Source: Deltaproteobacteria bacterium CG11_big_fil_rev_8_21_14_0_20_42_23 (GTDB lineage: Bacteria; UBA10199; 2-02-FULL-44-16). Taken from it: DNA of 64,000 bases. The DNA lies in the NCBI GenBank assembly GCA_002796345.1, contig PCXC01000081.1:27314-91313 (forward strand), in the 5' to 3' direction. The first letter of the stretch is position 1. Each line of letters begins with the position of its first letter. Positions 42,908 through 44,935 of this stretch are shown here, piece by piece. A model generated the notes under the pieces. It saw only the letters and a list, made by a program, of their open reading frames with translations, ran no database searches and was not told where the DNA came from. The translations under genes were made by a program, and so were the position numbers.

Positions 42908-43741
42908 TCAGAGTTCTTTTTTTAAGAGTCCGCTCTTCACCCACCCTGCCAGCATTTGCGTAAGGTGCAAAAGTTCTTCTTGGCTACTTCCAATCAGATC
43001 TTCTGCTTCTTCACACAATGTAGAAAACTTTTTCCCTGCTTTCAGAAGCTGTAAGAGCTTCTCTTCCTTTTCTTCAAGGCTTTGATACATCACTTCATAT
43101 TCATTTCGCCACAAAACTATTGAAGACGTTTCATCTTTCAAGCGTTCAAATGCAAAAACCGTTTCTGGAGAGCCCAGGTAATGCTTACGTATTTCCCACA
43201 CCGGAAACTGCGCCGTGAGAAATCGCACAGATGGCACAAGCTGCAAATGGAGATTTGGCCATGCTTCTGGAGCACATGCTTCCAAATCTGAAAGTTCAAG
43301 TGCAACAGCATCTGCCGCATCAAAGGCCTCAAGCAATTCCCATTCAAAAGCCGCAAGATCTGCCAGAAAAGGATATTGCTCTTGCAGCGAATGTCTTTTT
43401 AAAAAAGGGGGAAGATGCTTTCCTGCGTAACGCAGTGAGAAATGACGTGGAACATGAACGTTTAAATATTCACGAATGAGTTCAAGAAAAAGTTCATCAC
43501 CTAATACTGCATGCACAGTAGCATAGTCTTCCTTTAAGCTATTGTGGATGCGAATAAAATAAGCAGTGGCATAAATTTCTAATCGTCGAACGGCATCAAG
43601 TTTTTCAGTTGAACACACAGGCAAATCATGGAGTTGGTAATGTTCAATCGCAGCTTCAATTCCGCCGGAGTAACTCACAAGTTTTTTGATGAGATCTTGC
43701 GTCTCTTTAAGCGTTAGCTGACTGCTTGGATTTGAAGGCAT
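42908..43741 (-). CDS. DUF2063-family protein (MbnC/BufC-like partner of DUF692 enzymes)
   Basis: N-terminal LDAVRRLEIYATAYFIRIHNSLKEDY...LGDELFLELIREYL matches the DUF2063 RLxIYRNxY / LGxxxFxxL pattern. It overlaps the upstream DUF692 gene by 35 nt. Confidence 0.65.
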   Translation of the reverse strand: MPSNPSSQLTLKETQDLIKKLVSYSGGIEAAIEHYQLHDLPVCSTEKLDAVRRLEIYATAYFIRIHNSLKEDYATVHAVLGDELFLELIREYLNVHVPRHFSLRYAGKHLPPFLKRHSLQEQYPFLADLAAFEWELLEAFDAADAVALELSDLEACAPEAWPNLHLQLVPSVRFLTAQFPVWEIRKHYLGSPETVFAFERLKDETSSIVLWRNEYEVMYQSLEEKEEKLLQLLKAGKKFSTLCEEAEDLIGSSQEELLHLTQMLAGWVKSGLLKKEL

Positions 43742-44567
43742 GATATCTTTCCTTTGCTCGGGTGAGTTCTAAGAGGAGCTCATCAAAGGGAGGAATGTGA
43801 TCGTCCCATTCAATAAGGGTTGAAACATCTCCAAAACGTTCGAGCGCTTTATCGTACAACTTCCACACTTCATCTCGAATGTGGTGATCATGCGTATCCA
43901 GCAAGTGCGTGCCCATGTCACTATGACCAGCAAGATGAAACTGGCCAACGCGCTTGGGATCGATCGCGTTTAAATAAACATGCGGATCAAATTCGTGATT
44001 CACAGCACTTACAAAAATATTGTTGATGTCGAGCAAGATATTGCAATCGGCTTCTTCCGCAATGCAGCTGACAAATTCCCATTCAGTCATCGACGAAGAA
44101 TGATACTCCATATAACTGGAAACATTTTCGAGTAAAATTTTTCGTTCAAGAAAATCTTGCACCTGTCTAACCCTTGCTATCACATGCTTTGCCGCCTCTT
44201 CTGTTTGTGGAATGGGCATCAAATCATGCAAGCTATGTTTTCCAGTGCTGCTCCAACACGTGTGATCAGAAATCCACTTTGGATTACAACGATCTGCAAG
44301 TTGCTTGAGTTTTTTAAGGTAGTCAAAATCGAGGGGATCTGTAGAACCAATGGACATCGAAACGCCATGCATCACAATGGGATAATGTTCTGCAATTTGA
44401 TCTAAAACTGAAAGCGGCCTTCCACCAGGAATCATGAAGTTTTCAGAAATCACTTCAAACCAGTCAACTTCTTTGGGCCACTTTTCTAGAATATCGGGGT
44501 AGTGCTTTGTTCGCAACCCTACCCCGAAACTTAGAAACGGACATGCTTTTGAATCAGCAGTCTTCAT
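43707..44567 (-). CDS. DUF692 family non-heme di/tri-iron enzyme (MbnB/BufB-like)
   Basis: Hallmark motifs GVGLR, WFEVISENFM, HGVSMSIGS, ISDHTCW, LENVSSY, LLDINNIFVSAVNH, FHLAGH, DTHDHHI and IEWDD. Confidence 0.8.
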   Translation of the reverse strand: MKTADSKACPFLSFGVGLRTKHYPDILEKWPKEVDWFEVISENFMIPGGRPLSVLDQIAEHYPIVMHGVSMSIGSTDPLDFDYLKKLKQLADRCNPKWISDHTCWSSTGKHSLHDLMPIPQTEEAAKHVIARVRQVQDFLERKILLENVSSYMEYHSSSMTEWEFVSCIAEEADCNILLDINNIFVSAVNHEFDPHVYLNAIDPKRVGQFHLAGHSDMGTHLLDTHDHHIRDEVWKLYDKALERFGDVSTLIEWDDHIPPFDELLLELTRAKERYHAFKSKQSANA

Positions 44568-44833
44568 TATTTTTCAACTTTTCCGCCTTTTTCAACGCAC
44601 TCTGCTTCAGTTGCAGTTTTGATGAAGCCTTTTCCGCCACAACCATTTTGTCCTGCACAAGCATTGCCTGCAGTTTTGCATGCACTGTGACCTTTGCACG
44701 CATTTGCGCCCATACATTTTACCATGTCAGCTTTTTCAGCTTTTGGCGCGCTGTCGGCATTTGCAGCACCAGCAATGAAAAGACCAGCAACCGCAGCAGC
44801 TACCATAGCACCTTTTAATGTTCTTTTGTTCAT
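44567..44833 (-). CDS. DUF2282-type Cys-rich secreted precursor peptide (bufferin BufA-like)
   Basis: Sec signal [26 protein letters not shown], then [31 protein letters not shown] with 6 Cys (C-x-G-x-N-x-C-K-G repeats). Start at 44833 with AAGGGG upstream. The TGA overlaps the ATG of the DUF692 gene (ATGA). Confidence 0.75.
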   Translation of the reverse strand: [88 protein letters not shown]

Positions 44834-44906
44834 GTGTTCCCCTTGTGATTCAACAAACTGCTTTTTTTCACTATGAGAAAAAACGGTTTGTTCTGAGTTT
44901 CTGCAG

Positions 44907-44935
44907 ATTCTAGAAAAAGCAAAATCTCTCGTCAA
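44907..44935 (-). promoter_or_regulatory. near-consensus sigma-70 promoter for the DUF2282-DUF692-DUF2063 operon
   Basis: Minus strand: TTGACG (44935-44930), a 17 nt spacer, then TAGAAT (44912-44907); about 65 nt 5'UTR to the bufA-like ATG. Confidence 0.45.

Follow-up and report, generated by a model that had tools for sequence, protein, structure and literature searches.

The question raised by a compact trio of genes in the genome of Deltaproteobacteria bacterium CG11_big_fil_rev_8_21_14_0_20_42_23 is whether they form a system for making a copper-binding peptide and, if so, of which type. The genes lie within positions 42908–44935 of the stretch that was analyzed (64,000 nt of contig PCXC01000081.1, assembly GCA_002796345.1; ‘the window’ below). 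An initial annotation, made from the letters and their open reading frames (ORFs), had described a bufferin-type locus for a peptide that is made by ribosomes and altered after translation (RiPP), with a DUF2282-like precursor, a DUF692 enzyme and a DUF2063 partner, and had placed it with the gig/DUF2282 (Buf1) subtype. The bufferin assignment holds up well, with precursor and enzyme passing curated equivalog models, a complete set of iron ligands, a partner of fitting fold and a conserved gene order; the subtype has to be changed. The locus has the gene structure, the three family memberships, the catalytic residues, the partner fold and the gene order of such a system, and we consider it very probable that it is a Buf2-type bufferin (‘captophorin’) biosynthetic operon, bufA2-bufB-bufC, whose product would, by analogy with characterized relatives, buffer copper in the periplasm.

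All three ORFs that had been reported on the minus strand of this interval are there, and all are intact. They form a tightly coupled operon: the stop codon of the precursor gene and the start codon of bufB share one base in the TAATG at 44567; bufB (43707–44567) and bufC (42908–43741) overlap by 35 nt; and a Shine-Dalgarno-like AAGGAAAG stands ahead of the bufC ATG. Translational coupling, as originally proposed, is thus borne out. The upper limit of the interval is another matter, since at 44935 there is just a TTG from which a 122-aa ORF was called mechanically, and this TTG opens a promoter-like TTGACG (see below). The supported start of bufA2 is the ATG at 44833, which is preceded by AAGGGG. 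It is preferred because the resulting 88-aa form is the one gene-called in four of the six public loci shown and also deposited in NCBI (the other two calls are 122 aa in L005 and 79 aa in L006), and because residue 8 of this form is where its match to the BufA2 profile sets in.

The first gene of the operon, bufA2 (44567–44833, minus strand), encodes the 88-aa bufferin-2 precursor. It passes the NF050166 equivalog (‘BufA2 family periplasmic bufferin-type metallophore’) with 77.5 bits (6.8e-22, cut-off 60), and precursor residues 8–86 align with positions 1–78 of the 79 in the profile. No Pfam family is matched; in particular, PF10048 (DUF2282) is absent at E<=0.01 and also at E<=10, whether the full precursor or the core is used as the query. 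The description ‘DUF2282-like’ therefore gives way to BufA2. The two families are nevertheless related, since a precomputed PF10048 match is found in 3 of 53 homologues. On its sequence, the precursor is assigned to the BufA2 / BUF_6/12Cys family, a sister of DUF2282.

In an alignment of 44 sequences (the precursor and 43 database homologues), the invariant positions include six Cys (C40, C46, C52, C59, C65 and C79) along with G42, N44, G48, G61, N63 and G67. Cys-Lys motifs are present in the forms CKG and CKT, and the EGKCG repeat is absent from the precursor sequence. The N-terminus has basic residues (K3, R4, K7) and a hydrophobic core (Kyte-Doolittle 1.7–2.6 over residues 6–21), followed by A-N-A before D27, with no lipobox Cys; by inspection, this is the pattern of a Sec/signal peptidase I signal. 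The predicted signal peptide would comprise residues 1–26 (44756–44833, minus strand), leaving a 62-aa core (44570–44755, minus strand) with Cys at core positions 14, 20, 26, 33, 39 and 53. The precursor had been described as a Sec-signal, Cys-rich small protein, and the signal pattern together with the six core Cys agrees with that description. The AlphaFold2 model of BufA2 is weak, with a predicted local distance difference test (pLDDT) of 62.9; in it, Cys40 belongs to the first beta strand and Cys79 to a short helix, which would agree with what has been published on the CysI-CysVI disulfide (PMC11626156).

The second gene, bufB (minus strand), encodes a 286-aa maturase belonging to the oxidative enzymes that depend on multinuclear nonheme iron (MNIO, DUF692). 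The match to PF05114 is strong (368.9 bits, 1.7e-110), and the MNIO_BufB equivalog NF050167 is passed with 377.2 bits (3.6e-113, cut-off 310). Related equivalogs were considered and set aside: HvfB (275.5 vs 360), MbnB TIGR04159 (58.8 vs 325), ApyH and ChrH all fall far short of their cut-offs. The closest solved structure is 3BWW (5e-54).

The iron ligands of MbnB are His54, His90, Glu133, Asp163, Asn166, His192, Asp208, His210 and Glu239 (PMC9060507). HMMER alignments to 7TCR and 3BWW map these to H67, H102, E147, D180, N183, H211, D224, H226 and E253 of BufB. At the last ligand, the 7TCR (MbnB) register, which would set E239 against D255, two residues off, was rejected; the 3BWW alignment is far stronger, and in its register, adopted here, E253-W-D255-D256 of BufB corresponds to E-R-D-F of 3BWW and MbnB. 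Neither the nine ligands nor D255 vary in an alignment consisting of the window's BufB and 79 relatives translated from fetched genomes (80/80 sequences), and the D256 column holds Asp in 67 of the 80. The Asp at the D255 position has been proposed as the catalytic base, and the residue after it is Phe in MNIOs for Lys-Cys repeats and Asp (BufB2-D251) in those for Cys-Lys precursors (PMC13097082). Judged from these alignments, BufB has a complete MbnB-type iron site and the catalytic Asp, and its D256 is the Asp that characterizes MNIOs with Cys-Lys substrates. The full MbnB/BufB motif set with which the enzyme had been credited is indeed present.

The third gene, bufC (minus strand), encodes a 277-aa MNIO partner (PME type 1) with an N-terminal DUF2063 domain and a C-terminal domain resembling a RiPP recognition element (RRE). 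PF09836 (DUF2063) is matched with 52.6 bits (5.5e-14, cut-off 27.2). A sequence search of the Protein Data Bank (PDB) gave no match for BufC, and the structural relationship emerged from a fold search. The AlphaFold2 model, built from a 33-sequence alignment, has a pLDDT of 92.3 and a predicted template modeling score of 0.89, with a helical N-terminal domain and a C-terminal domain of strands and three helices. When this model is compared with the PDB using Foldseek, the best match is NGO1945 (3DEE; E 9.3e-7, TM 0.72 on target), the archetype of the ‘PME type 1’ MNIO partners (PMC12452194); TglI of the TglHI holoenzyme ranks second, and lasso-peptide RRE proteins (TbiB1, 5V1V/5V1U) are weak matches with probabilities of 0.6–0.8. 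As modeled, BufC has the DUF2063 + RRE-like fold of NGO1945. Of the earlier wording, ‘MbnC/BufC-like DUF2063 partner’, the DUF2063 part is confirmed by both the PF09836 match and the NGO1945-like fold.

The nature of the enzyme and of its partner also bears on the product. In the methanobactin system (MbnABC), an MNIO with the same fold and iron ligand set oxidizes Cys to a copper ligand, as is predicted here, and the resulting groups are oxazolone/thioamide pairs. BufB might make such pairs rather than 5-thiooxazoles: the two are isobaric, oxazolin was first assigned in this way (PMC11252979), and the MbnB fold and ligands are common to BufB. We regard this as very unlikely, given the wide gap between the MbnB equivalog score and its cut-off and a partner that is DUF2063/PME-1, not MbnC. 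Moreover, oxazolin has been revised to 5-thiooxazole, and PME1-dependent MNIOs have been argued to be makers of 5-thiooxazoles broadly (PMC13097082). Methanobactin further differs in having a leader peptide with dedicated export, where the window's precursor has a Sec signal, and in its role as a chalkophore (uptake).

The Buf2 assignment can also be judged from gene order. When genomes were scanned with BufB, 80 loci from many phyla came up, with 51–65% identity. A bufC homologue lies directly downstream of bufB in about 75 of the 80, and in most a signal-peptide protein lies directly upstream, with 6 or 12–13 Cys in the same register. The order precursor-DUF692-DUF2063, which had been called the signature of such systems, is thus kept in most BufB relatives. 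One of the loci with the order BufA2-BufB-BufC is from Legionella pneumophila subsp. fraseri, where a Buf2 bufferin has been named (PMC12452194). Closer to the window, a contig with a 95% identical BufA2 retains purF-(methyltransferase)-lipoprotein-bufA2-bufB.

Two further features of the relatives were seen in passing. The closest BufB relative (64% identity, from another Crystal-Geyser-type metagenome-assembled genome, MAG) has an expanded BufA2-like precursor (L007, 5669..5986) with eight Cys and extra GCGGKD/GCKGKN repeats; this locus adjoins guaB-guaA and dnaE. In distant, high-GC Binatia-like genomes, purF is found just upstream of bufA2-bufB-bufC (L060, 2065..7632; L016, 1..4746). In L060, a divergent pair sits between purF and the buf operon: one of the proteins has an anti-sigma-like HxxxCxxC motif, and the other, a small ORF, resembles an extracytoplasmic function (ECF) sigma factor by eye only. 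A published survey reports no such genes in Buf2 clusters, in contrast to this candidate sigma/anti-sigma pair.

An operon known from genes alone might be silent or have decayed to a remnant, or the enzyme might have a substrate other than the small ORF; NCBI labels the deposited precursor simply ‘hypothetical protein’. Such a reading is barely credible here. The three ORFs are intact and tightly coupled and keep all catalytic and family-invariant residues, in agreement with the earlier statement that the system is present and intact. The G+C content of the operon is 0.430, compared with 0.425 for the whole window, and a composition equal to that of the host genome, together with the intact ORFs, argues against decay. 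Many independent metagenome assemblies carry an identical operon: BufB is indexed in 33 collection blocks, from which 24 BufB-carrying contigs were read, and identical operon proteins occur on a 175-kb contig of the NCBI MAG GCA_002788255.1 (‘Deltaproteobacteria bacterium CG_4_10_14_0_2_um_filter...’). The arrangement is also kept in the relative with the 95% identical BufA2. Nothing points to a mobile element either: the only blastn match in a plasmid collection is a partial one, at 64.7%, to a Thiothrix DUF692 gene.

Which bufferin subtype is this, then? A close counterpart is buf2 of Caulobacter vibrioides (CCNA_02999-03001, bufferin 2), which consists of bufA2B2C2 with no DoxX gene and whose core has six Cys in about 61 residues (PMC11626156). 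The window's locus shares the order bufA2-bufB-bufC without DoxX, a precursor with a Sec signal, a six-Cys core of similar length (about 61–62 residues) and an MNIO with a DUF2063/RRE partner; the likeness is drawn from the published description and from the NCBIfam models that bear the BufA2 and BufB names. There are differences: CysI and CysVI are Cys24 and Cys50 in Caulobacter, compared with core Cys14 and Cys53 here, so that the Cys may be spaced differently; the window's locus gives no sign of control by SigF/NrsF; and the host is an uncultured ‘Deltaproteobacteria bacterium’ MAG, with the locus known from its genes.

The Buf1/gig systems (Caulobacter buf1ABCD and Cupriavidus metallidurans gigABCD) likewise combine a Sec-signal precursor, an MNIO and a DUF2063 partner, and 5-thiooxazoles flanked by a disulfide and a copper-buffering role would be common to both by analogy. 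Their precursors, however, are DUF2282 proteins with four Cys, and they usually have DoxX and often sigma/NrsF genes, whereas the window's locus has six Cys, no PF10048 match, no DoxX and no local regulator. These differences move it from the gig/DUF2282 (Buf1) subtype of the initial annotation to Buf2. The check that annotation had proposed, a search with three Pfam hidden Markov models, splits in the same manner: DUF692 (PF05114) and DUF2063 (PF09836) are found, and DUF2282 (PF10048) is not. For a Buf2 locus, the missing DoxX and sigma/anti-sigma genes are therefore normal, and Buf2 clusters have been described as free of sigma/NrsF genes (PMC12452194).

A third set of relatives, the Lys-Cys ‘captophorins’ oxazolin (HvfABC, Haemophilus influenzae), fontiphorin and gonophorin (PMC11252979, PMC13097082), also uses an MNIO with a PME-1 (DUF2063) partner, a pair that in their case installs 5-thiooxazoles on the Cys of signal-peptide precursors. 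This group supplies the closest solved structures, 3BWW for BufB and 3DEE for BufC. It differs in having EGKCG-type repeats and Phe after the catalytic Asp, compared with Cys-Lys motifs and Asp256 here, and the window's proteins score below the cut-offs of both HvfB (given above) and HvfC (55.9 vs 142).

If the Buf2 reading is correct, a pathway can be proposed. BufA2 would be made as an 88-residue pre-peptide and, while still in the cytoplasm, would be presented by BufC, with its DUF2063 and RRE-like domains, to the iron- and O2-dependent BufB. Four-electron oxidations by BufB would convert core Cys20, 26, 33 and 39 to 5-thiooxazoles, each with a loss of 4 Da. The peptide would then be exported by Sec and cut by signal peptidase I after Ala26 (A-N-A|D), and a disulfide would join the outer core residues Cys14 and Cys53. 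The 62-residue periplasmic product would chelate copper through its thiooxazoles and so buffer an excess of the metal. The computed monoisotopic mass of the core is 6144.85 Da, from which 6126.71 Da is predicted for the modified product (-18 Da). For Caulobacter Buf2, the product is indeed 18 Da lighter, with -4 Da per central Cys plus the CysI-CysVI disulfide, and the operon is copper-induced and protects against copper (PMC11626156). The initial annotation had predicted -4 Da per modified Cys and a periplasmic metal-buffering role, and both predictions fit the literature. The choice of modified Cys, the -18 Da product, the export and the copper role proposed here are modeled on that system and on captophorins (PMC13097082).

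Several points count against this account. Chemistry, export and copper role are carried over to the locus from Caulobacter Buf2 and systems like it. MNIO chemistry requires O2, and the genome is a MAG from CO2-rich groundwater, where the organism may or may not be exposed to oxygen. The signal peptide was assigned by inspection, and the BufA2 structure model is of such low confidence that it is too weak for a fold search. BufC covers the HvfC profile almost from end to end, yet falls well short of its cut-off, and a BufC-specific curated model was not matched in the profile search. A promoter ahead of the operon is suggested by a match to consensus. Finally, the 64-kb window contains no copper-resistance, DoxX, ECF sigma or NrsF gene, and its gene content therefore offers no argument for a response to copper.

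The last of these points can be turned into an alternative in which the same thiooxazole biosynthesis serves a role other than copper defense, such as buffering another thiophilic metal or delivering it, or shielding the cell from redox or sulfur stress, with expression that is constitutive or under a putative repressor. In its favor, the window is without copper or sigma/anti-sigma genes, the operon sits amid purine-biosynthesis housekeeping genes with a sigma-70-like promoter and a unique 41-bp leader palindrome, and MerC-Buf2 fusions, with possible roles for other metals, have been noted (PMC12452194). This alternative seems unlikely, though it deserves more weight than any other considered here. 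Both characterized Caulobacter bufferins are copper-induced and copper-protective (PMC11626156), and further 5-thiooxazole peptides have been linked to copper too (PMC11626156; PMC13097082). In addition, Caulobacter buf2 is governed by a SigF encoded elsewhere, which makes the lack of a local regulator uninformative. Copper buffering by a Buf2 product is thus the role we prefer.

Upstream of bufA2 lie two candidate control elements. A consensus scan gave a sigma-70 promoter-like site, TTGACG-17 nt-TAGAAT (44907–44935, minus strand; 10/12 matches), which precedes the ATG of bufA2 by about 75 nt. Fewer such sites are found in the region than in shuffles, so that the match is weak evidence; the closest relative contig (L089) keeps the -35 hexamer and part of the -10 hexamer. 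Between this site and the bufA2 ribosome-binding site, in the 5' leader, is a 41-bp near-palindrome (44852–44892), AACAAACTGCTTTTTTTCA-CTA-TGAGAAAAAACGGTTTGTT, with 19-nt arms that are 84% complementary and a 3-nt spacer. It is unique in the window and is matched by 0/100 shuffles. As RNA, the leader folds no better than shuffles (z = -0.73), and an Rfam search of 42000–47000 gave nothing meaningful. The palindrome is only partly conserved in L089, where the outer arms are not cleanly kept. Candidate roles for it are those of an operator or of a hairpin in the leader.

The operon might accordingly be under an unusual mode of control, with the palindrome acting as the operator of a metal- or redox-sensing repressor or as a leader hairpin, and with a role other than acute copper defense. 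This suggestion draws on the lack of a copper regulator inside the purine cluster, the linkage to purF in the distant Binatia-like genomes, the operon's own promoter and the leader palindrome; we consider it improbable, somewhat more so than a non-copper role as such. If it were true, the operon might serve a low-oxygen groundwater bacterium outside acute copper defense.

For the locus as a Buf2 operon, only the instance is new, as thousands of clusters of the family have been described and curated models exist. The practical value lies in annotation: the deposited ‘hypothetical protein’ can be renamed BufA2, and bufB and bufC can be named likewise. The locus adds one uncharacterized example from an uncultured groundwater lineage and opens no new question. 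It is also a compact, GC-neutral cassette of three genes, and expressing it could show whether this lineage shares the thiooxazole chemistry and the copper buffering.

The operon is flanked on one side by purM-purN and a convergent outer membrane protein (OMP) beta-barrel gene, and on the other by a lipoprotein gene and purF-purL-purQ-purB. The remaining window genes are housekeeping ones (topA, dprA, proC, putA, surE-pcm-nlpD, hemCD, argS, lepA, lepB, purA and others). The immediate neighbors were considered as additional buf components and rejected. The 369-aa predicted lipoprotein (44969–46078, minus strand; lipobox LLAAC) has a faint Cep192_D4/Ig-like match and no family assignment. It was rejected as a fourth component because none of the 80 BufB-relative loci has it; in a buf-less relative (L087) it still comes after purF, and elsewhere it is found in unrelated contexts. 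Its family is well conserved and lineage-specific, with at least 120 clusters at 36–59% identity in related ‘Deltaproteobacteria/Pseudomonadota bacterium’ MAGs, and is often located downstream of purF. The small OMP beta-barrel protein (42305–42904, plus strand; PF13505, 34.7 bits) is encoded convergently with bufC, 3 nt away, and other buf loci lack it.

Two observations elsewhere in the window concern other genes. A 1026-aa beta-helix/bacterial TSP3-repeat protein (23540..26620, minus strand) adjoins a tyrosine recombinase of the XerC/D-like or phage integrase family (22507..23586, minus strand); the pair has no relation to the bufferin locus. At 58156..59055, directly after a full-length aldehyde dehydrogenase gene, a 299-aa ORF matches the aldehyde dehydrogenase profile only over its first half (positions 11–233 of 461), so that a duplicate cut short or a gene with a frameshift may lie here.

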